DNA of 41,096 nt from a virus. Taxonomy: Duplodnaviria; Heunggongvirae; Uroviricota; Caudoviricetes. The notes below the pieces were generated by a model. The model was not told the DNA's origin, ran no database searches, and was given only the letters and a program-made list of their open reading frames with translations. Positions within the stretch are counted from its first letter, which is position 1, and each line of letters starts with the position of its first letter. The stretch lies in the IMG/VR virus record IMGVR_UViG_2541047851_000007; one strand, written 5' to 3'. Below, piece by piece: positions 2,196 through 40,627 of this stretch. Both the position numbers and the translations under genes were made by a program.

Positions 2196-2857
2196 GCCCC
2201 TACATCAAAACCACTGATGAATTCGTTATCCATATCAAAACCAAAAAATTTTGAACCTTCCGATGGGGTTTCCACCGAAGGTGTTTCAATGCCACCCGCC
2301 CACACCCCGGCGGCTTTTACTGTGAGATATCCCTGTTTAATTGCAGCAATTAACTCACGCGATACATCTGAAATATCAGTATCAGGAAAGACCCAGACCG
2401 ATATCGTCATGTCCTGGTTATCGACTATCTGCATTCGCAGCCCGGATCCTGCTGTTGCCGCGTCAAGAATTACCGGAAGCGAATCATTCCGTCCGTCCCA
2501 GTTATTAATCGCAATCTTCGCTTTAAGGATGACACGATAAGTTTCATCGCTGAGGTACATGTATCCGGAATCAGGATCGTATGGCCCCTGCCATACACCC
2601 TGATCATATCCAAGCCCGTCGGTATCCCAGCTGAAATAGACACCTGAGATAGGCTGGCTGACAACACGGCTACGTCCGATCCACAATCCAAGAATGTCAA
2701 GTTGCACACCAACCGCGGAGTCAATATCAAATGCAGTAATCAACCCTCTGGTGGCCGCCGCAACATCAATAAGCGGCCGGGTCATCAGATCAACATGCGC
2801 AAGAAATTTAGGTTTGGTGGCGTGGTAGTTCGTGATTAGTTCGGTGTATTTGCTCAT
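2177..2857 (-). CDS. Baseplate/tail-fibre-proximal protein (YmfQ / Mu gp48-like)
   Basis: 226 aa; position between J-like baseplate gene and fibre; family assignment from memory. Confidence 0.5.
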
Positions 2858-4053
2858 GACTCCACCGTTATAACGATATTTTCCGGGGTACAGGACGCAG
2901 ATTCGTTGTATCTGATATCAATGTTTGATGACGACAAAGCCCCCGGGGATTTCCCAATCGTCAGTTCCTGAATATCGTAATAGCGTGCATTCCCGCCACT
3001 CACCACGCCAAGATTCGCCGGTGAGTAAATGCGACTTAAAAGGACCGAATCACCAATCATCAGACTATTGATATAGTCGGAAATAGCCTGCTGGATCTGC
3101 TGCCCTATCTGTGAGGTATAACCCGTAAAAACTTTTAATTTAATCCGGGCATAAACAGGCACATCACTGGAACGCGAGAATTTGATTACATGGGGATTGC
3201 CGTATTTATCCGGAACCGTAACGGATGTTGTACCGTGAGTGGCTGTCCCCTGGCCTTTATTTCCTCTGATAGCCTGAGCAATATCCGTCACATCACCGCC
3301 ATCCACAATTACAGCAACAGAGTGTGGCGGTAACCCGTTACCGTCCTCTGAACCAGTATCGTTTTCATAGAGTTTGTGGCGGGTTACACCGGTAACATTA
3401 GAAACAGCACCATCCAGTGCTTCAAATGGGGTTATTGATGGCAACGCAACACTTTGCGACTGACGGATACGTAACTCCGCATCAGTTTCTGCCGGAGTGC
3501 CTACAGTAGCTGCAGCAGGATTGGTTACCGAAACCCAGCCACGGGTTGGCGTATTAATTTCAGTGATAGTTCCAGCCAGCGCCGCCACTGCACCACTGAC
3601 GGAACATGTTGCGGTCGCCATCACTGTACCATCCACGCCGACCACCACTGAAGCAGGCAAACGCCATATCACATTATTACCATCTTTCACGCTGCCATTA
3701 ATGATGGTTGTTCCGGCAGTTCCTGTAAGAAGCAAATCAACCGTAGAGTTCGTCGCGCCTTTACGTGAAATACCATTTATTTTCACGTTACTGGTCAGTG
3801 CAGCCCCATAGCCGGTTGCCGGTGAAAAACAGTTGTAGACAGTTATCGCAGTATTATTGGCATCATGAATCGCCAGCGCCATCAGAGCCACCATCTGGCC
3901 GTCTTTGCTGTCCGGTTCGAGGTAGGCATCACTGCCATAAATCTGCTGAAAATAGCTAATCAGGGTGCTGAGTATCGTCTGATAATCAGGCGCACTGATC
4001 CCCTCCGCGGTTACCTTTGCAGATAAACCGAGAGAATCAAGGTTCAGAGCCAT
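2854..4053 (-). CDS. Baseplate J-like protein
   Basis: 399 aa; size and position in baseplate cluster. Confidence 0.6.
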   Translation of the reverse strand: MALNLDSLGLSAKVTAEGISAPDYQTILSTLISYFQQIYGSDAYLEPDSKDGQMVALMALAIHDANNTAITVYNCFSPATGYGAALTSNVKINGISRKGATNSTVDLLLTGTAGTTIINGSVKDGNNVIWRLPASVVVGVDGTVMATATCSVSGAVAALAGTITEINTPTRGWVSVTNPAAATVGTPAETDAELRIRQSQSVALPSITPFEALDGAVSNVTGVTRHKLYENDTGSEDGNGLPPHSVAVIVDGGDVTDIAQAIRGNKGQGTATHGTTSVTVPDKYGNPHVIKFSRSSDVPVYARIKLKVFTGYTSQIGQQIQQAISDYINSLMIGDSVLLSRIYSPANLGVVSGGNARYYDIQELTIGKSPGALSSSNIDIRYNESASCTPENIVITVES

Positions 4054-28998: not shown

Positions 28999-29167
28999 TG
29001 AAAAAAGGAATACAACCGATGAAACCTGAACACATCCATCGACTGACGGGGCGCGATGTTCTCCGTTATCGCCGTAAAAACTTCGATTTGATGACCGGTC
29101 TGGCCGTTGCCACTGCGCTCGGTCTGATCATCACTTTCATTCTCCTTGTAGCGAGGACCACAGTATG
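28999..29167 (+). CDS. Small single-pass membrane protein (first ORF of early operon)
   Basis: 56 aa read by eye ([56 protein letters not shown]); AAAGGAA RBS; stop overlaps next ATG. Confidence 0.35.
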
Positions 29168-30067
29168 AGTTTAGAAACCAGTCTAGAACTTAATAATCAA
29201 CTTCTGGCACAACATAATGCGCTGCTTGAACGTCTTATCCGCACAATGGCATCAGGCATTGTTATGCATCCTGACACGATTTCACGAGTGCAGGAATGTC
29301 GGGATACAGCAACTGAAACTGAAAATATGTCAGCGGCAATGACACTGGATGATCTGGAGTTCAGCGACGTTATCGCACTGGCTGGTTTCTACCCGGTAGC
29401 CACCCCTATCACAGAAGACATGCTGCAACGTGCTGTTGCCTACCGTGATGCTGAAGGCGATAAACGAGTTGTTCAGATTGATGCTCTCGACAGCGCATTG
29501 CAGGGCGTCAAACGAGCCAGGGCGCTGCTTAAACCTGCTCTCCTGGACCTGTCCCGTAACATCCTTAAGTTCTGGGACGACCTGCCAACCATCGGCGAGC
29601 GACGTGCTTTTGCCGAGCAGCTACTTGATGCACCTGCAGATGGGCGTGATGAAGTTAAGCCGAAAAAGGCCAGTAACAAAGATGGAGAACGCACGGGGCC
29701 GTTTTACGTCAAAAATGTATCCGGCACAGCAGCCAGTGAACTCCATACCTTACGCAAGTTGAACGAGATGCTTAAAAAAGGCCATATCGAGATCAACCGT
29801 GTTGAGTACCTTCAGCTGCAGGAAGAATTTGCACGCAGAGACGCAGCAAATTCCAGCCAGAATAATGACGCCAAAGATGACCATACAATTGATTTCGCGG
29901 CACTACGCAAACAAGCTGAAGGGTTGATCCTCCAGTTAGCAAAAGGGGGTTACCGGGCAGAAGCTATTGCAATTCTGGAAAAACAGGGAGCCAGGAAACT
30001 TGGTGAAGTAACGGATGAAAATCTCGCTGAAGTAATCACCCTGGCTGAAAAAGCACTGGAGGGTTAA
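29165..30067 (+). CDS. Hypothetical early protein
   Basis: 300 aa; helical, acidic; coupled to following nuclease gene. Confidence 0.5.
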
Positions 30068-30069
30068 TC

Positions 30070-31371
30070 ATGCCAGACGTTCATGCACAACTTTCTCCAT
30101 CATCAGCGCATCGATGGATGCGCTGCCCAGGAAGTCTGGCGCTGGAGGCCACACAACCGGATAAAGAAACAACTTTTGCAATCGAGGGCACTGCAGCGCA
30201 TGCACTTGCCGAAAAGGTGCTGCGCAACCGCCAGAGCCACCCGGAGCACTATGCAGGTTGCAACGTCGCGATGTTCCTTGGATCCTATCCTCTTGCTGAG
30301 CACCCGGATGATACTTCCGGCCCGCAGGTAGATGAGGAAATGGTCGAAGCCGTTGGTCGTTACGTCGACACTGTTTGGGCGCTGGCGCAGGGCAATGAGC
30401 TGCTGGTCGAGCAGCGTGTCGACTTCTCCCATATAACGGGTGTGGAAGAATCTTTCGGAACTGCCGACAGCATAATCATTGCTGGTAGCGAATTACAAAT
30501 CCACGACCTGAAATATGGCAAAGGCGTCCGCATTGATGCAGAACAAAATGAGCAACTACAACTGTATGCTCTGGGTGCGCTCGAACAATTCAGCATGCTG
30601 TATGACTTTGAGACTGTAAGATTATTTATTCACCAGCCGCGGCTTAACCACGTTTCAGAGTGGGCTCTGACGGTGGAAGAGCTCCAGGCGTTCGGTGAAC
30701 GGGCACAGGAGGCCGCAACCAGTGCGATCCTTGTTCTCAATATTGCTGAATGCGAAGGCATTGAGACACTACCGCTGGAAAACTTCATACCTGGAGAAAA
30801 ACAGTGCCGCTTCTGTAAAGCAAAAGCTATTTGCACTGCCCAGAAAATGCAGCATTTACAAACAGCGGCCAGCGACTTTGAAGATCTGACAAAGCCTGTC
30901 AGCGAAATAATCACCAATGCCAGCGCACGTGTACCTCTGTTAACCATTGAGCAGCTTGCGGAGATCTATAGCCAGACCGACTTTATTGAGTCCTGGCTAA
31001 AGGCAGTACGGGACCGGGTTCACAATGAACTCAATGCCGGACATCCGGTACCGGGGTTTAAACTGGTAACAGGAAAACAAGGTAACCGGGCCTGGAGTGA
31101 TGAAGAGGCAGCTCGCGCACTTCTGAAGGACCAGTTCAGGTACAAAACTGAAGAAGTATTCGACTTTAAACTTATTAGTCCCACAAAAGCCGAAAAACTT
31201 ATCAAAAAGGCCAGTCCGCGCCGTTGGTCAAAAGTCGAGGCACTGATAACACGAGCTGATGGTAAACCCACCGTCGTTCCCGAGTCAGACCCACGCCCCG
31301 CACTCAATATCAACCCTGTAAATGATTTCGACGACGTATCCGACGATACGCTAACCGCAGACCTCATCTGA
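30070..31371 (+). CDS. PD-(D/E)xK nuclease, Cas4/RecB-like
   Basis: 433 aa; IHDLKYGKG (D-x-K), QLQLYALG (QxxxY), Cys cluster [10 protein letters not shown]. Confidence 0.65.
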
Positions 31372-31386
31372 TTTAAGGAAATCCCC

Positions 31387-31935
31387 ATGAAACTGAAGCT
31401 GAACAATGTTCGTCTGGCCTTCCCGTCTCTGTTTGAAGCTAAAACTGTAAACGGCGAAGGCGATCCGCGTTTCTCCGCAGTATTTTTAATGTCTCCCAAA
31501 CACCCACAACTGGAAGAAATCCGTAAAGCTATGAAGCAGGTAGCGAAGGAAAAATGGGGGGAGAAGTGGGAGTCCATTTATAACCAGCTGGAGAAAAAAC
31601 TCAATCTGTGCCTGCATGATGGTGATGAAAAAGCAGAGTATGAAGGCTTTCCCGGCAATTTCTTCCTGAACGCTGCTAACAAAGCGCGCCCAGCTGTTCT
31701 TGATCGCGATCGTTCGCCACTAATTCAGGCTGATGGACGTCCCTATGCAGGGTGCTATGTAAACGCCGTTATCGATATCTGGGCACAGGACAATAATTTC
31801 GGTAAACGCATTAATGCCTCACTCGGCGGAGTCCAGTTCCTGCGAGACGGCGATGCATTCGCTGGCGGCGGAGTGGCAAGCGCTGACGATTTCGACGATA
31901 TCAGCGAAGGTGCTGATGCTGAAGCACTAATTTAA
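31387..31935 (+). CDS. Phage ssDNA-binding-like protein
   Basis: 182 aa; between nuclease and polymerase; acidic C-terminal tail (DDFDDISEGADAEALI). Confidence 0.45.
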   Translation: MKLKLNNVRLAFPSLFEAKTVNGEGDPRFSAVFLMSPKHPQLEEIRKAMKQVAKEKWGEKWESIYNQLEKKLNLCLHDGDEKAEYEGFPGNFFLNAANKARPAVLDRDRSPLIQADGRPYAGCYVNAVIDIWAQDNNFGKRINASLGGVQFLRDGDAFAGGGVASADDFDDISEGADAEALI

Positions 31936-31956
31936 AAATATTCATCCCCCAGCTGC

Positions 31957-32625
31957 GTGCTGGGGGATCTCATGAGGGAAAGAATAATGTCACAGCCCGT
32001 ATTAACTAATTACCTTAAAACTCAAATCATCAATAACGCACTTGAGAAAGCGGGTATCCCCAAACGTAAATCAGCACTACGAGCTGCTCGTGTTGAATGG
32101 GCCGAACGTGTTCGGCTTGCAGCTATCGGGGGCGTAGAGAAAGAAGCTGAAATATTAAAAAATATAAAAAAAATAGAAACACTGGTATCAAAATTCCCCG
32201 AAGCATTAAAAACCGCCAATAACATTATCAGGGAAGAGTGTTACATGTGTCTGAATCTGGCAGGTTCTCGGGTTACCGTCTATTTCAACGGTAACTACCG
32301 AGGATATGAATCAGGGTCACCAGACCATATTCACAAAATCGCGCCGGGGGAATTTACCCTTCTGGCAAATGACCCTCTAGTTACAGAGTTTTACGGGTTT
32401 GATACACTTTATGAGCAGATACAGAGCGATGAGTCAGACATTCGACAGAATGTCAGCGCTGCACTCAGTAAAGTGCGCACAGTTAAGCGCCTGCTGGAAG
32501 AGTGGCCTGAAGCTAAAGAACTTCTGCCAGCCGATGCACCATCTGCTCCGCTTCCGCCAGCTATACGACGCGAAACTCTCAACGAAATGATCGGCCTCCC
32601 TTCTGACGAAGGGGTAGATGCTTAA
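31957..32625 (+). CDS. Hypothetical early protein (likely start at 31987)
   Basis: 222 aa ORF; internal Met with RBS GAGGGAAAG. Confidence 0.45.
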   Translation: MLGDLMRERIMSQPVLTNYLKTQIINNALEKAGIPKRKSALRAARVEWAERVRLAAIGGVEKEAEILKNIKKIETLVSKFPEALKTANNIIREECYMCLNLAGSRVTVYFNGNYRGYESGSPDHIHKIAPGEFTLLANDPLVTEFYGFDTLYEQIQSDESDIRQNVSAALSKVRTVKRLLEEWPEAKELLPADAPSAPLPPAIRRETLNEMIGLPSDEGVDA

Positions 32626-32692
32626 TATTTCTTATAACAAAGGCTGGCTTAAGAAAATAGTTATCCAAACCAGCCTACCGCAATACTAAAAA

Positions 32693-32962
32693 TTAAAATT
32701 CATTGAATTTAAAAAGACATTTCCCTATTGGATTGCCATAGTCTCTACATACCGAAATGCTGTCCCATACAGGCTGAGCCAAACACCCAAGAAAGAACCC
32801 AATAAGCGCAAAAATTATAATTTTGGGAAGAACACGATCCTTAGGACCTTCTTCACGTTCGAGCCATGCGCCACCAGCCCGAACTATTCTCCCTAAAATA
32901 TAAAGAATGGGGAAAGCAATAATACCTATCAATGAAAGTATTCCGATACCAAAGCTAAACAC
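32693..32962 (-). CDS. Small two-helix membrane protein, opposite-strand moron
   Basis: 89 aa; two hydrophobic helices; GTG start with GGAG RBS; very AT-rich; antisense to flanking operon. Confidence 0.45.
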   Translation of the reverse strand: MFSFGIGILSLIGIIAFPILYILGRIVRAGGAWLEREEGPKDRVLPKIIIFALIGFFLGCLAQPVWDSISVCRDYGNPIGKCLFKFNEF

Positions 32963-33018
32963 CGCCGTCTCCTTGTTTATTTACACCTACATAACCATAT
33001 ATCACACAAGGTTATTTT

Positions 33019-35082
33019 ATGTCCAATATACTATGGGGTGACCTAGAAACCTATTGCGAAATCCCTATTACGAACGGTACCCATGCGTATGCCGAAGGCG
33101 TTGAAGTGATGCTGTTCGCATGGGCTATCAACGACGAGCCCGTAAACGTGTGGGATATCACTGCCGGTGGTGGTATTCCACACGGCTTATACGAAGCAAT
33201 CGCAGCCCCTGAAACCCTGCTTTATTTTCATAACTCTCACTTCGACCGCACCGTCCTGCGTTATGCAATGCCGCGCCTGGCACCGCCAGTCGAACGTTGG
33301 CGCGACACAATGGTGCAGGCGCTGGCGCACGGTCTCCCGGGGTCTCTGGGGGAACTCTGCGAAGTACTAGGCGTCCCGCAAGACAAAGCGAAGGACAAAG
33401 AAGGTAAAGCGCTGATCCAGCTGTTCTGTAAGCCACGCCCGAAAAACAGCAAACTGCGCCGGGCCACCAGCAAAACCCACCCGGAAGAATGGCGGCGCTT
33501 TGTTGCTTACGCCGGACTGGATATCGAGGCAATGCGCGAAGTCTATAAACGTCTGCCGAAGTGGAATTATCAGGGGACAGAACTGGCGCTCTGGCATCGT
33601 GATCAGCAGATCAACGACCGGGGCGTCTGCATGGACATTCAACTCGCGCGCGCTGCGATCGAAGCGGTAGACCAGGAGCAAAAGCGCCTGGCAAAGCGTA
33701 CACAGGAAATGACTGATGGCGAAGTGCAGGCAGCAACACAACGGGACGCGTTGATTAAGCACATCGTTGAATCCTACGGTGTGGAGCTACCAGACATGCA
33801 ACGCAGTACTCTGGAACGTCGTATAGCCGACCCCGATTTACCATCTGCCGTGAAAGAACTGCTGGCTATCCGCCTGCAGGCCAGTACTACCAGCACCAGT
33901 AAATACAAGGCACTGATGAAAGGCGTAAGCCACGACGGGCGCTTACGCGGTACGCTACAGTTCTGCGGGGCGTCACGTACCGGTCGTTGGGCCGGACGGC
34001 TATTCCAGCCCCAGAACCTTCCCCGCCCTTCACTAAAACAGGAACAAATAGACGAAGGCATCGAAGCACTGAAAGCCGGATGTGCAGACCTGCTGTTTGA
34101 CAATATCATGGAACTAACCAGTTCAGCGTTACGTGGCTGCATTATCGCGCCAACAGGCAAAAAACTGGTGGTAAGTGACTTGTCGAACATTGAAGGCCGT
34201 ATGCTGGCATGGCTGGCGGGAGAAGAATGGAAACTGAATGCATTCAGAGAGTACGACGCCGGAACGGGTCCGGACTTATATAAACTGGCGTATGCAAAAG
34301 CTTTCGATATTGCACCAGATGATGTTGATAAACACATGCGTCAGATCGGTAAAGTCATGGAACTCGGTCTGGGTTATGGAGGTGGTGTATCGGCTTTCAT
34401 CACTTTTGCTCTGGTTTACGGTCTCGATCTCGACGAGCTGGCGAACGCCGCACTGCCAAACATTCCCCGCGATGTTATCCGCGAGGCGAAAAGCTGGTAC
34501 AACGAATCGGTTAAACGTAAGTCGACCTTTGGCCTGTCCGAGCGTGTATTCATCGCATGTGACTCGCTCAAGCGCCTGTGGCGCAGGGCGCACCCGGCGA
34601 CCTGCGATTTCTGGTACGAACTGGAGCGCACCGTCCGCACTGCAATCGCCACACCGCAAAAAACATTGTATTGCGGTTATCTTAAAATCCGCCGCGATGG
34701 CGCGTGGCTGCGCATACAGCTACCATCCGGACGCGCTGTATGCTACCCCTCTCCGGTTATCGAAAAAGGGAATATCACCTATATGGGTGTTAACTCTTAT
34801 TCGCGTAAATGGCAACGACTCAAAACCTACGGCGGAAAGCTGGTAGAGAACGTCACCCAGGCGGCCGCCCGCGACGTTCTGGCCGGAAACATGCCGCTTA
34901 TCGAAGATGCCGGTTACAGCATTGTGCTGACGGTACACGACGAGGTGATCACCGAAGCACCTGACACAGAAGATTTCAACGATAAAGCGCTTTCCGCGCT
35001 TCTCTCCACTAACCCCGAATGGGCGCCCGATATCCCACTGAACGCTGGCGGTTTTGAGGCGTACCACTACCGTAAGGATTAA
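33019..35082 (+). CDS. Family A DNA polymerase with 3'-5' exonuclease domain
   Basis: 687 aa; exo motif DLET; motif [14 protein letters not shown]; motif [17 protein letters not shown]; motif C LTVHDEV. Confidence 0.85.
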
Positions 35083-35087
35083 TCGCT

Positions 35088-35291
35088 ATGACTGTAATCA
35101 AAACGCATACCGGAACGGTTATTACCCGCACCGGTGAAAAGCAGGTGCAATTGCATCAAAACGCGACAACGTGGGTGGCTGGCCCAAAAGAGTATTACTA
35201 CAAAGACACTGGCCGCCGCGGTGGTGCTGTCGGTGTCCGCACTCGTCTGGTGCTGAGCAGCATCCGCCCAATCGAAGCAAAGCAGGAGTAA
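35088..35291 (+). CDS. Small hypothetical protein
   Basis: 67 aa; coupled ORF after polymerase. Confidence 0.35.
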   Translation: MTVIKTHTGTVITRTGEKQVQLHQNATTWVAGPKEYYYKDTGRRGGAVGVRTRLVLSSIRPIEAKQE

Positions 35292-35296
35292 CCCCT

Positions 35297-35518
35297 ATGT
35301 CATTTAAATATCGGGACAGTCCGCTTTATTACCGGGCTGCGAGGGAGGCCTTGCGCCTTGAGCAGTCCGGCGAATATGACCGGGCAGCGAAGGTCTGGGC
35401 CAAGGCTAACCGCCAGTCACGTAACGAACTGAATCAGGACTGGAGCGAACGCCGGTCTGATTTTTGTCTGATGCAGAACATGCGCGAAAAGCGTAAGGCG
35501 GTGAGCGATGACTTGTGA
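35297..35518 (+). CDS. Small basic protein, possible regulator
   Basis: 73 aa from ATG 35297 with AGGAG RBS (ORF track extends upstream without RBS). Confidence 0.4.
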   Translation: MSFKYRDSPLYYRAAREALRLEQSGEYDRAAKVWAKANRQSRNELNQDWSERRSDFCLMQNMREKRKAVSDDL

Positions 35519-35990
35519 GCAGACCATTCTTGACATGTGCTGCGGCTCTCGTATGTTTTGGTTCGACAAGGAGGACAAGCGCGCCGTGTTCAGTGATATC
35601 CGCGCCGAGCAGCATGAGCTTTGCGACGGTCGCCAGTTGGTTATAAGTCCGGACCTTATAGCTGATTTCCGCGCCCTTCCCTTTGCCGATAACACTTTCC
35701 CTGTCGTCGTTTTCGATCCGCCGCACCTCGAGCGCGTCGGCGATAACGCATGGATGAGGAAAAAGTACGGGCGGCTCAACAAAGAAACATGGCGCGATGA
35801 TCTTCGCGACGGCTTCGCCGAAGCATTCAGGGTATTGCGGCCCCACGGTGTACTCATATTCAAATGGAACGAAACGCAGATCCCGGTAAGCAATATCTTG
35901 GCGCTGACCGACGAGAAGCCGGCCATATGGCAACGAACCGGAAAAGCCGACAAAACCCACTGGGTTATTTTCGTCAAAGGTGTGGAATGA
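35508..35990 (+). CDS. Small SAM-dependent DNA methyltransferase (amino-MTase type)
   Basis: 160 aa; motif I LDMCCGS; motif IV VVFDPPH (DPP[YFH] class). Confidence 0.5.
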   Translation: MTCEQTILDMCCGSRMFWFDKEDKRAVFSDIRAEQHELCDGRQLVISPDLIADFRALPFADNTFPVVVFDPPHLERVGDNAWMRKKYGRLNKETWRDDLRDGFAEAFRVLRPHGVLIFKWNETQIPVSNILALTDEKPAIWQRTGKADKTHWVIFVKGVE

Positions 35991-36283
35991 TGGCCTACGA
36001 ACGTGAAAGCCTTATCGAAAAGCACCTCGTCGCCGAAGTGAAAAAGGCTGGCGGGGTCGCCTTTAAGTTCGTGTCACCCGGTCGCCGCTCGGTACCGGAT
36101 CGCATTGTCCTGCTACCCGGCGGTCGCATCGTCTTTGTCGAATGCAAAGCGCCAAGCAAACCACCACGGCCTGACCAGTTACGCGAGCACGAACGGCTGC
36201 GCGCGTTGGGCTTTACCGTGGTGGTATTAGATAGCAAAAATCTGGAGGGGATATTGTGCGGGGAGCCTATTACAACGAAATAG
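35987..36283 (+). CDS. VRR-NUC domain nuclease
   Basis: About 98 aa from ATG overlapping upstream stop; PDRIVLL...IVFVECK (D...E-x-K). Confidence 0.6.
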   Translation: MMAYERESLIEKHLVAEVKKAGGVAFKFVSPGRRSVPDRIVLLPGGRIVFVECKAPSKPPRPDQLREHERLRALGFTVVVLDSKNLEGILCGEPITTK

Positions 36284-37284
36284 ACCCTAACGCAGCACAA
36301 TGGCTGCGTAACCTTATTGCTGCAGGTCATATCGCCCCGGGTGAAGTTGATGAAAGGAGTATCGAAGATGTCGCACCAGACGACTTGCGCGGATTCACAC
36401 AGTGCCATTTCTTCGCCGGGATCGGCGTCTGGTCTTATGCTCTGCGTCTGGCCGGATGGCCGGATAACAAACCGGTCTGGACAGGAAGTTGCCCGTGCCA
36501 GCCTTTCAGCTCGGCTGGTAAAGGCGCTGGGTTTGATGACGAGCGGCACCTATGGCCAGCACTATTCCACCTCATCAGCGAGCGACGCCCTAAGCTGGTA
36601 TTTGGCGAACAGGTTGCGGGAGTCAATGCCTGGTTCGATCTTGTACAAACTGACGTGGAAGCAGTGGACTACGCCTTTGGGCTTGTCCCGTTTCCGGCTG
36701 CGGGCGTCGGTGCCCCGCATATCCGAGATAGAGCGTATTGGGTGGCCGACGCCAGCGGCGAGCGATCACAGCGGTGGCGAAAGCGCCTCAATAGCATTGA
36801 GGAAGATGTCTGGAGATCGTCGACCGTCCGGCAACACGCTACACAGCTCCCTGCGGAATTTTGCTCACCTAGCGGGGTGGTACACCCCAACCTGCAACAC
36901 AAACCCACAGCCGGAGACAAAACGCGGTCTAGAAACCTTAGCGGGACTATCCAGATTAGCGGGATGGCCGACAGTGACGACGATCGACAACAACCAAGTT
37001 CGTGCCGAGGGCGCAGCGGCCAATCATACCGAACGGGGAACGACCCTCGGCGGCGCTGCGAGAATCTGCGGCCCAATACGATTAACGGCTGCTGGGATGG
37101 TGCTGACTGGCTCCTCTGCCGGGATGGTCGCTGGCGGCCAGTTGAATCCGGCACATGCCCGTTGGCTAATGGGATTACCTCCAGAGTGGGACGACTGCGC
37201 GCCTACGGCAACGCGATAGTCGCACCAGCTGCCGCAACATTCATCCGCTCGTTTATGGAATGCGCAGGATACGACCTTATTTAA
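36256..37284 (+). CDS. DNA cytosine-5 methyltransferase
   Basis: 342 aa; motif I FFAGIGV; motif IV PCQPFS; motif X RAYGNAIV; GTG start. Confidence 0.8.
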
Positions 37285-37601
37285 TGCCACTCACATCTGG
37301 CATGATACCGTCCAGAAGGTAATTGCTTATATACAACGGAGCCGCCCATGGCATAAGTATAAGCATGAAGTTTTGTCCAGAAGTCCCCATAAACTAGTAT
37401 TGGGGCTAAAAATTTTGGATCGCTAACCATAGATGTAGCAGGAAGCTCGAAACCTTTAGAAAGAATGTTTACCAGTGAAGGGTAATTTTCAAAATCAGTG
37501 CTATTCCCGCCCACCTCTAAAGCATCCAGTTCAAAGTCGAGCACTCCACCATTTTTGTAATACTCCGGAACAGTTAACCCTGATGTTAACAAAGTAGCCA
37601 T
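37281..37601 (-). CDS. Hypothetical protein, opposite-strand AT-rich moron
   Basis: 106 aa; AGGAGG RBS; AT-rich relative to flanking GC-rich genes. Confidence 0.5.
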   Translation of the reverse strand: MATLLTSGLTVPEYYKNGGVLDFELDALEVGGNSTDFENYPSLVNILSKGFELPATSMVSDPKFLAPILVYGDFWTKLHAYTYAMGGSVVYKQLPSGRYHARCEWH

Positions 37602-37635
37602 TAAACAATCCTCCTGAATTTTAAAGGGTTACATT

Positions 37636-39030
37636 ATGCCCAAAGTTTTCACGCCTCGCCCCTACCAAGATCTAATTATCAACCACGAAATCGACATTCA
37701 CCGCTGCAACATCTGGGCAGGGATGGGGATGGGTAAAACCGTAGCGACACTCACCACGCTGGAAGATCTTTTCATGGCGGGCTCAGAGACACAGCCCGCG
37801 CTGGTCCTCGCGCCCCTACGCGTTGCAGCAAGCACATGGCCGGATGAAGCGCTGAAATGGGGGCATCTGCGCAATATCGAGGTGCAGCCGATTGTTGGTA
37901 ACGCCAAAGCACGCTCTGCAGCGCTGGCGAACAGCAACGCGAGCGTGTTCACCATCAACTACGATAACCTTGTCTGGCTGGTTGAGGAATTGGGAGAACG
38001 ATGGCCGTTCGGTACTGTCATTCCAGATGAAAGCACCCGGCTAAAATCCTTCCGGCTGCGAGGTGGTGGTAAGCGCGCGGCGGCGCTGGGCAAAGTGGCG
38101 CATAAGTATGTCCAGCGCTGGATAAATCTCACCGGTACGCCAGCACCGAACGGCCTGGTAGATTTGTGGGGACAATTGTGGTTTGTGGACCAGGGGCAAC
38201 GTCTCGGGCGCACTTACGGCGCGTTTACCTCACGCTGGTTCAACTCGATACAGTTTCCGGGGCAGAGCTGGACCAAACTGGAGCCGTTTGCTCACTCACA
38301 TGCTGAAATACAGCGAGCGTTAGCCGATGTGACCCTCTCGCTGGATGCGGCCGACTGGTTCGATATCAAAGACCCCATCCATAACGTAATCCGCGTGGAT
38401 ATGCCGCCGAAGGCCCGTCAGCAGTATCGTGAAATGGAAAAGGAAATGTTCCTCGAGCTGAACGGCGAAGGCATCGAAGCACCAAACGCCGCGGCAAAGA
38501 CACTGAAGTGTCTGCAAATCGCCAGTGGCGCAGTATACACAGACGACACCGGAAGTTGGTCAGAACTGCATGACACCAAACTACAAGCGCTGGACAGCAT
38601 ACTGACCGAAGCAGCTGGCGCACCTGTGCTGGTTGCTTATCACTGGAAACACGATCTTGAACGCTTGCTTAAAGCATTCCCTCGCGGTCGTCACCTCGAC
38701 CAAGATCCACAGACACTGCGCGACTGGAATTCCGGAAAGATTCCTGTTCTCTTTGCACACCCAGCCAGCGCGGGCCACGGTCTGAACATGCAGGACGGCG
38801 GAAACATACTGGTATTTTTCTCACACTGGTGGGACCTGGAGCAGTATCAGCAAATTATTGAACGTATCGGCCCCACCAGGCAGATACAGGCCGGACACAA
38901 TCGTCCGGTATTTATTCACCACATTATTGCGGCCGACACTATGGACGAAATGGTGATGGAGCGGCGCAACTCAAAACGAACAGTGCAGGACATCCTGCTC
39001 GATGCCATGAAAAAGAGAGGTATAGCATGA
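37636..39030 (+). CDS. SNF2-family helicase
   Basis: 464 aa; Walker A AGMGMGKTV; DExx box IPDESTRLK; C-terminal helicase region. Confidence 0.75.
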   Translation: MPKVFTPRPYQDLIINHEIDIHRCNIWAGMGMGKTVATLTTLEDLFMAGSETQPALVLAPLRVAASTWPDEALKWGHLRNIEVQPIVGNAKARSAALANSNASVFTINYDNLVWLVEELGERWPFGTVIPDESTRLKSFRLRGGGKRAAALGKVAHKYVQRWINLTGTPAPNGLVDLWGQLWFVDQGQRLGRTYGAFTSRWFNSIQFPGQSWTKLEPFAHSHAEIQRALADVTLSLDAADWFDIKDPIHNVIRVDMPPKARQQYREMEKEMFLELNGEGIEAPNAAAKTLKCLQIASGAVYTDDTGSWSELHDTKLQALDSILTEAAGAPVLVAYHWKHDLERLLKAFPRGRHLDQDPQTLRDWNSGKIPVLFAHPASAGHGLNMQDGGNILVFFSHWWDLEQYQQIIERIGPTRQIQAGHNRPVFIHHIIAADTMDEMVMERRNSKRTVQDILLDAMKKRGIA

Positions 39031-39227
39031 GCGAGAAACCCGACGATTTACTCACCCCAGATGAAGTATGCCAAAAGTTAGGTATTACACAGAAAACGCT
39101 ATGTGAGTGGAATATTAAGCATCGTCATCGGGCTATCCTGGCACCAATTCGTTTCAGTGCAAAAGTAGTTCGTTATGAGCGCCGAAATGTCGACGCTTTT
39201 ATTCAAAAGTGTCGCAGCCAGTATTAA
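39027..39227 (+). CDS. Excisionase / AlpA-like DNA-binding protein
   Basis: 66 aa; HTH (LTPDEVCQKLGITQKTL); overlaps integrase 3' end. Confidence 0.6.
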   Translation: MSEKPDDLLTPDEVCQKLGITQKTLCEWNIKHRHRAILAPIRFSAKVVRYERRNVDAFIQKCRSQY

Positions 39228-40627
39228 CCTCGCCGCCGTAGCAATGCAACCTGCGCAAGTATGCTCCGCTCGTGAGCCTCGAAAGCTTCGCGCTTTAACG
39301 CAATCTCTTCCTGTAAAATCTCATCAGAAAAGTCGTAATGTTCTGCCATCGGGTCATCTGACTTGCTGGAGTGGTGAAGGCAAAGGAGGCTGATTTCCCT
39401 TCGGTCTGATCGGGAATAGCCTCTTTCCTTCATCAAGGCAATAACATTGCTCTTAAGGAATTTACGGCACATCGTATTAAATGCACCGTCTTTCCCTTTA
39501 ACAGTCCCATCATGTTTTATTCCTTTTACAGCCCCGTCCGGGCTGTATGTTTTCACCAGCTTATCCAGTGATCGTTTTGAAAATGGCTGCATTGGATCAC
39601 GTGGCTGCAAAAATACATAATCCCTGTTGCACTCAGGAACTGAATCACGCCAGGCTTTCTGCTCGTCGATAATCCGCCGGATCTCAGGCGTTATCGGCAG
39701 GCGGAAAGCCTTTTGTGTTTTCATAGCCCCTCGCATGCCGATAACCCCTTCCGGATAAACAATTTCACCAGCCTCCTCGTGAACGTAGTCCCAGCGCAGG
39801 TTATGGACATTAATCGGACGAACGCCAGTGATGATCATGAAGCGAACAGCATTCTTCTGGTGTACAGAGGTGCAGGCAGCAACATTGAGCCAGAGTCGGG
39901 CGATTGATTCAATATCGGTAAAAAGCCGTGTGGGGGTAGGTTTCTGTATGCGGGAGGAAACATAATCATCTGGCAGACTGGCGGCAACATTGCGGCCGTT
40001 GCAAAGAGTAGGTGCGCAGAACTTCCAGAACCGACGGAGCTCGGCAAACAACTCCAGGGCGTTATTGTTCGAGCGAGTGGCGATCCACTCGTCCAGCACT
40101 TCCACCAGCCGATTGTATGTTACGTCGCTGAACACCTCACGCTCGCCGAACGTTGCTTTAATCCGGTCGATACGCACCCCGTAGGTTGTGAAACTGTCCG
40201 GGCTCAGCTTCTGCCGGGCGACTTTGGCTTTGAGGTCATCCCGGTACATTTCCAGCGCTGCATGTACTGACTCTGCCCGCAAGCCACAGTCAGCCATACC
40301 TAGCGCTTTTTCGCGCGCCAGCTGGATAGCGAGCTCCGGCCACTCGCCGAGCTTTTTACCCTTGAGGCCCATCTTTTTTGGAAACTCGGCGTAAAATGTA
40401 ACCTTACCGGCTTTGCTGAAATCGATACGGAGATAGTTCTCTTTTTCGTATTTGGAACGGCGAGCCACGCCGGAAGCAGCGAGGATGATTTTGGCAGCAG
40501 CAACACAGATTTTCATGTGTGCGCTGGTATAGGGGGGTTTACAGGCGTCCCATTTTTCAGATGCGGCTAAAACATCGTCATTATTGGGGCTATCCGGATT
40601 ATGTGTTACAGTGCGCGGCATTCTCAA
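39224..40627 (-). CDS. int: Tyrosine integrase (start possibly internal, near 40516)
   Basis: 467 aa ORF; catalytic-domain features (TGVRPINV, LHH, AEHYDF); adjacent to xis at prophage end. Confidence 0.85.
   Translation of the reverse strand: MRMPRTVTHNPDSPNNDDVLAASEKWDACKPPYTSAHMKICVAAAKIILAASGVARRSKYEKENYLRIDFSKAGKVTFYAEFPKKMGLKGKKLGEWPELAIQLAREKALGMADCGLRAESVHAALEMYRDDLKAKVARQKLSPDSFTTYGVRIDRIKATFGEREVFSDVTYNRLVEVLDEWIATRSNNNALELFAELRRFWKFCAPTLCNGRNVAASLPDDYVSSRIQKPTPTRLFTDIESIARLWLNVAACTSVHQKNAVRFMIITGVRPINVHNLRWDYVHEEAGEIVYPEGVIGMRGAMKTQKAFRLPITPEIRRIIDEQKAWRDSVPECNRDYVFLQPRDPMQPFSKRSLDKLVKTYSPDGAVKGIKHDGTVKGKDGAFNTMCRKFLKSNVIALMKERGYSRSDRREISLLCLHHSSKSDDPMAEHYDFSDEILQEEIALKREAFEAHERSILAQVALLRRRG

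Follow-up and report, generated by a model that had tools for sequence, protein, structure and literature searches.

A 106-residue antisense protein from a variable prophage slot: a candidate phage-conflict protein of a family without assigned function

Introduction

In the window analysed here (41,096 nucleotides of viral DNA, class Caudoviricetes, IMG/VR record IMGVR_UViG_2541047851_000007), a short AT-rich gene runs against the direction of an otherwise GC-rich early operon, between the genes for a C5 cytosine DNA methyltransferase and a SNF2-family helicase. A sequence-only reading of this locus had recognised no family for the encoded protein and had proposed a defence or anti-defence moron. 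The locus thus raises the question whether the ORF is a gene at all and, if so, whether its product protects the prophage and its host against other phages, protects the mobile element against host immunity, or serves neither purpose.

Results

The locus and its prophage

The element in the window is a myovirus-type prophage of approximately 40 kb, integrated at yfhL in Escherichia coli, with a tyrosine integrase gene (39224-40627, minus strand) at the prophage end that adjoins yfhL; over the 3.1 kb around the gene under study, E. coli BH100N and other strains match it at 100% identity. The early operon on the plus strand encodes a DUF2800 nuclease, an Enc34-type ssDNA-binding protein, an Nmad5-family protein, a family A DNA polymerase, an ANR regulator, a SAM methyltransferase, a VRR-NUC nuclease (35990-36283), the C5-methyltransferase, the SNF2 helicase and an AlpA-like HTH protein. 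The SNF2 protein shares 95.5% identity with its counterpart in the induced E. coli phages vB_EcoM-606R2, 689R2 and 611R5, 75% with APSE-1 P41 (from a Hamiltonella phage) and 66% with Bbp47 of Bordetella phage BPP-1; because of these resemblances, the replication module is regarded as APSE/BPP-1-like and the prophage type as inducible.

The antisense ORF was found at 37281-37601 (minus strand); it starts with ATG and encodes a protein of 106 amino acids with a mass of 11.8 kDa, a pI of 5.15 and a net charge of approximately -4. The perfect AGGAGG ribosome-binding site that had been described for it is present at 37615-37610 on the same strand, 8 nt 5' of the ATG at 37601; the intervening spacer is ATTGTTTA, and the minus-strand sequence 5' of the ATG is AATTCAGGAGGATTGTTTAATG. 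Orthologues carry AGGAGT (Klebsiella) or AAGAGG (Pectobacterium) as Shine-Dalgarno sequence. The reported AT-rich stretch between GC-rich genes was also recovered, with a GC content of 0.40-0.425 across 37300-37699 in comparison to 0.58-0.64 in the left and 0.58-0.60 in the right flank (200-nt windows). With a GC of 0.417 and a GC3 of 0.346, the gene is compositionally foreign to its flanks, where GC3 is approximately 0.58-0.62 (C5-methyltransferase, 0.58; SNF2, 0.606; PolA, 0.577). Both neighbours were assigned as proposed, the left one by Pfam DNA_methylase (36256-37284, plus strand) and the right one by Pfam SNF2-rel_dom (37636-39030, plus strand). The methyltransferase and the antisense gene are convergent, and their stop codons overlap in the TTAA at 37281-37284.

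The gene and SNF2 diverge from a spacer of 34 nt (37602-37635) that holds both ribosome-binding sites, and because this gap is so short, any promoter of the antisense gene must overlap the start or the coding sequence of SNF2. A consensus scan between 36800 and 38200 gave neither a sigma-70 promoter nor an intrinsic terminator. A putative promoter element is the -10-like hexamer CATAAT (5/6 matches, 37638-37633, minus strand), which overlaps the reverse complement of the SNF2 start codon and lacks an acceptable -35; it is kept in both alleles of the family (that of the window and the divergent one of L033), and a BstA cassette has TATAAT at the equivalent place. A second hexamer, GATAAT (5/6 matches, 37680-37675, minus strand, within SNF2 codons 13-15), also lacks a good -35, reads GATGAT in several relatives and might at best be a faint promoter candidate. 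No clear excess of synonymous conservation, as an embedded promoter might leave, was seen at the 5' end of SNF2, whose first 90 nt are 82-91% identical versus 78-93% in the rest of the gene. Rfam gave no match in the window, and a repeat scan of the window yielded nothing meaningful. The antisense placement within the early operon together with an own strong ribosome-binding site would fit independent expression. Orientation, composition and analogy suggest that the gene may be expressed from the lysogen.

The ORF is a gene under purifying selection

The protein has a RefSeq entry (WP_000212683.1, hypothetical protein), and the exact sequence occurs on at least 1000 public contigs, always unnamed. 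A word-indexed search retrieved 12 close clusters at 64-97% identity from Escherichia, Salmonella, Klebsiella, Enterobacter, Pectobacterium and Buttiauxella; 11 of them are 106 amino acids long, the twelfth is a 77-aa fragment, and there are zero indels. An exhaustive HMMER scan of 1.84 billion representatives gave 56 clusters (clustered at 50% identity) at E ≤ 1e-3 and 24 at E ≤ 1e-10, nearly all of them standalone proteins of 100-140 amino acids. In an alignment of 54 sequences, G18, G19 and G87 are invariant, and E38, G50, F51 (motif GFELPP), W75, Y91 and A101 are nearly so. Pairwise Nei-Gojobori comparison of five orthologous DNA sequences gave dN values of 0.16-0.25 at dS values that were at least 1.2 or saturated, and dN/dS was 0.05-0.15 where defined. 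The 34-nt spacer is kept at 30-32 of its 34 positions in Klebsiella and Pectobacterium (counted from the alignment), in front of an ORF that is itself saturated at synonymous sites.

The ORF is a genuine gene under purifying selection. A functionless chance ORF in AT-rich spacer DNA could appeal to the negative consensus scan for promoter and terminator and to the lack of any family annotation, but it is at odds with a dN/dS of 0.05-0.15 at saturated dS, with a length kept without indels across genera, with 56 clusters of relatives, and with a conserved ribosome-binding site and a confidently modelled fold (see below); its probability is close to nil, and the conservation data exclude it. The sequence-only reading had named a lack of conservation as an outcome that would speak against its proposal; on both measures, dN/dS and the 56 clusters, the ORF is conserved.

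A family without recognised relatives and with an apparently new fold

The protein matched PHROG 28127 ('unknown function') over its entire length (E = 1.7e-59, residues 1-106 versus profile positions 1-106), as did all 54 aligned relatives. It is a full-length member of a family that is itself without function, structure or literature; literature searches for WP_000212683 and phrog_28127 gave no relevant paper. The earlier statement that no family is recognisable holds apart from this profile: the protein had no Pfam or NCBIfam match, none of the 54 relatives matched Pfam, PADLOC-DB v2.0 (including BstA) gave no family at E ≤ 1, and a sequence-profile search of the PDB returned only noise (E > 1). 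Structure prediction had been recommended along with profile searches; the AlphaFold2 model (pLDDT 94.3) had no Foldseek match in BFVD. The model predicts a soluble alpha/beta fold without solved relative, which appears to be an orphan or new fold among the PDB profiles and BFVD models compared.

Domain searches revealed no HTH, nuclease, DNA-binding or other regulatory domain and no catalytic signature. No likeness in sequence or fold was detected to the solved anti-defence families (Ocr, ArdA, KlcA, Acr, Tad, Acb, Gad and others). The longer relatives, checked for informative domain fusions, gave no functional clue; they comprise C-terminal tails, probable frameshifts, one tandem duplication and one Zn-ribbon-like tail.

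The gene occupies a variable cargo slot that behaves as a defence hotspot

The presence or absence of the gene across related prophages, a check that the sequence-only reading had suggested, was determined in complete E. coli genomes, 162 of 5,426 of which carry the SNF2-integrase module. In most of these 162, similarity to the window begins only at 37632-37681, at or just inside the SNF2 start. Pairwise blastn comparisons set the right boundary of the variable segment at 37632-37663 and the left one at the VRR-NUC stop (about 36255) or, where the methyltransferase is present, at its stop (37280). The result is a cargo slot from the VRR-NUC stop to the SNF2 start (36284-37635) with VRR-NUC as conserved left and SNF2 as conserved right border; in the window it holds the optional methyltransferase on the plus strand and the 106-aa cassette proper (37281 to approximately 37632) on the minus strand.

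Slot cargo is usually antisense. The 106-aa gene was found in 20 complete genomes, always at ≥99.7% identity, and 15 carry BstA (309 aa, PADLOC E = 2.5e-110). Elsewhere the slot holds a three-gene cluster whose largest protein is PDC-S42 (PADLOC E = 4.7e-40), or antisense genes of 236, 265 and 214 aa without known identity. Regulators occur as well (Arc/Arc/Rha in the L003 variant; Ant plus a regulator in APSE-1), and in Yersinia phage YeP4 the place is taken by an antisense gene of 164 aa. The methyltransferase is itself optional, independent cargo that accompanies the 106-aa gene or BstA and is missing elsewhere. The interval between PolA and VRR-NUC is a second hotspot, with a TIR protein (PDC-S35, E = 1.6e-109), an antisense ATPase, Ant or YfbU.

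The VRR-NUC-SNF2 slot behaves as a defence hotspot with tight boundaries; its other occupants include a validated (BstA) and a candidate (PDC-S42) defence gene, and by alternating with these the 106-aa gene lies where a defence gene is expected to lie. Of the anatomy of a classical prophage moron (in the sense of Juhala and Hendrix), presence or absence between genes that adjoin in related phages and a distinct, foreign composition were both observed, but for an own promoter and terminator the scan found only the 5/6 -10-like hexamers without -35, and the stop codon overlaps that of the convergent gene. The literature searched contained no account of this slot.

Divergence of the gene within a conserved backbone

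The lineage also has prophages in Klebsiella, Pectobacterium and Enterobacter, which carry the gene at the identical position and in antisense, without the methyltransferase; here its stop overlaps that of VRR-NUC, and 34-35 nt separate it from the SNF2 start. Relative to the window, the 106-aa protein of these prophages is 67-71% identical, in comparison to 91-95% for SNF2 and 85-91% for PolA. Deeper divergence was seen in E. coli Sx181-0-1, where the slot encodes a 104-aa protein of the same family with only 33-34% identity to that of the window (BLASTP E = 2e-23) in a backbone with 94% (SNF2) and 92% (PolA) identity; no other complete E. coli genome carries this allele, which is common in Enterobacter. 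The PHROG 28127 gene is the most diverged of four genes compared. Strong purifying selection within alleles and deep divergence between them in a conserved backbone form the pattern that would be expected of a conflict gene.

The constant position of the gene also admits a different explanation, in which the protein is an accessory without a role in phage defence, i.e. a modulator of prophage replication, of induction or of SNF2, or a factor of host physiology or fitness. Across four genera the gene is always divergent from SNF2, with its start 32-35 nt from the SNF2 start and a conserved spacer, two very different alleles share this position, and the regulators Arc, Rha and Ant are found in the slot of relatives. 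We consider such a role unlikely: BstA, PDC-S42 and unrelated genes freely replace the 106-aa gene while SNF2 is unchanged, which means that SNF2 does not need it; homologues reside in islands without SNF2 or phage genes; and the protein has no DNA-binding or other regulatory domain.

Distant homologues reside on mobile elements and in islands

The contexts found for distant homologues were all mobile or island-like. In an integrase/AlpA island of Dyella, the homologue lies between a Lamassu system (matches to LmuA, 8e-34; LmuC, 6.5e-6; LmuB, 4e-114) and PDC-S06 (E = 3e-161). On metagenome contig L046, it lies approximately 900 nt from a type I methyltransferase (8e-284), SIR2 (7e-153) and HerA (1e-252), and on a further contig it is followed by a 1,734-aa protein that weakly resembles Avs4/PDC-M54A. 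Further homologues were located between an integrase and a MobA relaxase (one metagenome-assembled genome), on an ICE-like contig with TraU, DUF1525, DUF3742 and HipA, beside an HNH_2 protein in a Buttiauxella island, on a contig that carries HEPN/MNT toxin-antitoxin genes and, in two Burkholderia megaplasmids, among a series of small unknown genes that follows a ChpB toxin-antitoxin pair. The family is restricted to mobile elements and defence islands. Three different queries gave no member of it in 50,697 GenBank phage genomes, scans of viral contigs with two distant members gave no match, and only 2 of 72,556 plasmids carry it. This rarity in isolated phages and plasmids is more in keeping with a gene of benefit to the resident element and its host than with one carried by invading virulent phages or plasmids.

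No conserved neighbour or partner gene was found across these contexts, from which it follows that the family works alone; the genes downstream of the homologue are unrelated between Burkholderia and contig L014 and between Dyella and Buttiauxella. This bears on the idea of a two-gene module to which the gene would contribute one half, as antitoxin or immunity gene, as toxin, or as partner or controller of the C5-methyltransferase in a restriction-modification-like unit. Such a module would account for the abutting methyltransferase gene with overlapping stops in 20 of 20 E. coli genomes, for the proximity of some homologues to toxin-antitoxin genes (ChpB, HipA, HEPN/MNT) and for the tandem duplication in one relative, which hints at dimerisation. 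It is nevertheless very improbable, since the neighbours vary, since the methyltransferase is not beside the gene in Klebsiella, Pectobacterium and Enterobacter and is found beside BstA instead, and since the protein has no HTH, hence is no C protein, and has neither the size nor the features of a restriction endonuclease. The link between the gene and the methyltransferase that the sequence-only reading had implied in its title is accordingly incidental, each occurring without the other. Two specific forms of the module were rejected: a type II toxin-antitoxin or toxin-immunity pair, as the neighbours differ in every context and are mutually unrelated, and a restriction-modification unit with the C5-methyltransferase, as presence and absence of the two genes are uncoupled and neither an HTH nor a nuclease domain is present.

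Discussion

The 106-aa ORF is a selected gene of a standalone family with an apparently orphan fold, and it lies in a variable slot that sister prophages fill with BstA or PDC-S42. In the explanation that we favour, tentatively and at somewhat less than even confidence, its product is a candidate non-enzymatic defence protein expressed from the prophage. The ORF would be a horizontally acquired accessory cassette of moron type in a defence hotspot, and the protein, most likely made from the resident prophage, would protect the lysogen against superinfecting phages. By analogy, it may act by binding a phage protein or a host factor that the phage needs, in a stoichiometric rather than catalytic manner. 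The earlier proposal of a defence or anti-defence moron found partial support here, namely in context: BstA or PDC-S42 in the slot, homologues by Lamassu, PDC-S06 and SIR2-HerA, and faster divergence than the backbone.

Some observations speak against this explanation. Neither a consensus promoter nor an intrinsic terminator came out of the scan, and the 5' end of SNF2, where a promoter would have to lie, shows no clearly raised conservation. The slot also holds non-defence cargo (Arc/Rha in the L003 variant, Ant plus a regulator in APSE-1), and a neighbourhood of defence genes says little where the islands are mobile elements in their own right, with integrase, AlpA, relaxase or ICE genes. 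To our knowledge, very few single-protein defence systems of approximately 100 amino acids without a recognisable effector domain have been validated, and a small, acidic protein that stands alone on a mobile element is more usual for anti-defence.

Anti-defence is the main rival to the defence reading. As a small binder or mimic, the protein would then inactivate a host defence, e.g. restriction, Lamassu or SIR2-HerA, either upon entry of the phage or island into a new cell or as a shield of the resident prophage against host immunity. Its size, acidity, lack of domains and spread over prophages, ICE/IME-like elements and plasmids fit this function equally well. At 106 amino acids, a pI of 5.15 and a charge of approximately -4, standalone and without enzymatic motif, the protein is of a size and character typical of anti-defence proteins. 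Its rapid divergence relative to the backbone, including allelic replacement, the variety of the mobile elements that carry the family (prophages, an integrase and MobA element, an ICE-like contig and Burkholderia megaplasmids), and a strong ribosome-binding site, as would suit a protein needed in stoichiometric amounts, point in the same direction; in E. coli, moreover, the gene lies beside two orphan methyltransferases of the phage, which represent another anti-restriction strategy. The absence of the family from isolated phages and the antisense placement argue mildly against anti-defence, and we regard it as possible but doubtful.

Among known proteins, the defence reading has its nearest parallel in Tab of Pseudomonas phage JBD26, a constitutively expressed prophage moron of 83 residues without similarity to known proteins, which binds a phage protein and thereby stops invading phages from assembling their tails (PMC10884400). 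Both are single small moron proteins of prophages (83 versus 106 residues) without known domain. Tab is encoded between the terminase genes of the late operon and is matched by a cognate anti-Tab, whereas no such partner was seen for the 106-aa gene; no relationship in sequence or structure was detected between the two proteins, and what they may share is the proposed mode of action only. BstA provides the parallel in position, as a prophage-expressed single gene that 15 E. coli genomes carry in exactly the same slot, likewise antisense and directly next to the SNF2 start. It is a prophage-encoded abortive-infection protein that is usually encoded downstream of the prophage repressor (PMC8585504), unlike in the slot described here. 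With 309 amino acids and an HTH/KilA-N-like N-terminal region, it also differs from the 106-aa protein, which does not match the BstA model. On the side of counter-defence, Ocr, ArdA, KlcA/ArdB, Acr, Tad and Acb resemble the protein in being small, acidic, standalone, non-enzymatic and fast-evolving and in occurring on several types of mobile element.

The slot itself shares with defence hotspots of temperate phages and satellites, such as the P2 and P4 hotspots and the lambdoid cI-N region, two conserved flanks, sharp boundaries, mutually exclusive cargo including defence genes, and low-GC antisense cargo; it differs from them in belonging to another phage lineage, one that has a replication module of the APSE/BPP-1 type and integrates at yfhL. 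Accessory genes as cargo of such hotspots in prophages are a known kind of finding, but the family, the fold and this hotspot appear to be undescribed in the literature searched. A more far-reaching proposal, to which we give a little less credence than to the defence reading, is that PHROG 28127 represents a new single-gene phage-conflict family of approximately 12 kDa with an unseen fold, a recurrent and perhaps ancestral occupant of the hotspot in APSE-like enterobacterial prophages, which would act by binding a phage or immune component without an enzymatic domain.

If the protein acts in neither defence nor counter-defence, it would be an ordinary uncharacterised accessory gene product of a prophage. 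If it acts in one or the other, it would be a structurally new and very small effector in the arms race between phages and bacteria, and as a defence protein it would rank among the smallest standalone anti-phage proteins known. The prophages themselves amount to a natural experiment, in which near-identical elements of clinical E. coli, Klebsiella and Enterobacter carry the 106-aa gene, its 33% identical allele, BstA, PDC-S42 or other antisense genes. Together with two neighbouring slots, the hotspot offers further candidates within a short stretch of DNA, among them the unknowns of 214, 236 and 265 aa.

Replication module and its relatives

The replication module of the window (29165-39227) comprises DUF2800/PDDEXK, Enc34-type SSB, PolA, VRR-NUC and SNF2 helicase genes. 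Comparison with the loci L042, L043 and L044 (the last from Yersinia phage YeP4) identified this module as a relative of that from Hamiltonella phage APSE-1, whose SNF2 helicase P41 is 75% identical; the modules of Bordetella BPP-1 and Yersinia phages YeP4-6 are also akin to it, with identities of 66% and 74%, respectively. Near-identical replication modules were found in the induced E. coli phages vB_EcoM-606R2, 689R2 and 611R5. From approximately position 29165 rightward, the coordinates of the window equal those of E. coli strain BH100N (NZ_CP025703.1), and the gene coordinates of the left structural part (1 to approximately 28000) are shifted by approximately 250-540 nt versus the same sequence. 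Thus, either the window stems from a prophage or strain that differs slightly, or its left part contains indels.

Antisense genes between VRR-NUC and SNF2 helicase

In the E. coli locus L002, the gene for the abortive-infection protein BstA (2573-3502, minus strand) is located between the C5 cytosine methyltransferase (C5-MTase) and SNF2 helicase genes, antisense within the early replication operon. The same placement was observed in 14 further E. coli genomes, including that of ETEC H10407, and RefSeq mostly lists the BstA gene product in these genomes as 'hypothetical protein'. Many BstA homologues sit downstream of the prophage repressor (PMC8585504), whereas those of L002 and the 14 other E. 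coli genomes do not.

The slot between the VRR-NUC stop and the SNF2 helicase start also harbors unannotated minus-strand genes in three E. coli prophages, encoding proteins of 236 aa (L030, 3737-4447), 265 aa (L031, 3614-4411) and 214 aa (L032, 3685-4329), and in phage YeP4 (164 aa, L044, 5448-5942). A PADLOC search gave no match for the three E. coli genes and only a marginal match to a type II restriction endonuclease for the YeP4 gene (E = 5e-4). All four are candidates for additional defence genes.

A second and a possible third variable interval

The PolA-to-VRR-NUC interval (35083-35989) is a second variable slot of the same prophage lineage. In the window it contains a 67-aa ORF (35088-35291) along with genes for a regulator of the ANR family and a class I SAM methyltransferase (35508-35990). 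In relatives, it is occupied instead by a TIR protein matching PDC-S35 in PADLOC (E = 1.6e-109); other occupants are Ant, DUF4406, YfbU and an ATP-binding protein of 342 aa encoded in antisense.

A small antisense ORF annotated as hypothetical (89 aa, 32693-32962, minus strand), for which PADLOC gave no match, lies between the Nmad5-family and DNA polymerase genes. In relatives, too, antisense genes are found at this position; their annotations cover 537-690 nt, and some of these genes are truncated by the end of the locus. The interval may be a third cargo slot.

C5-MTase and a putative nucleotide modification gene

The C5-MTase gene (36256-37284, plus strand), which shares 28 nt with the 3' end of VRR-NUC, is optional cargo: it is confined to prophages with the 106-aa gene or with BstA (94.7% nucleotide identity between the two groups) and is missing in other variants. 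RefSeq further annotates a 'Nmad5 family putative nucleotide modification protein' (31987-32625, plus strand) within the early operon. The presence of this gene together with two methyltransferases suggests that the phage modifies its own DNA.
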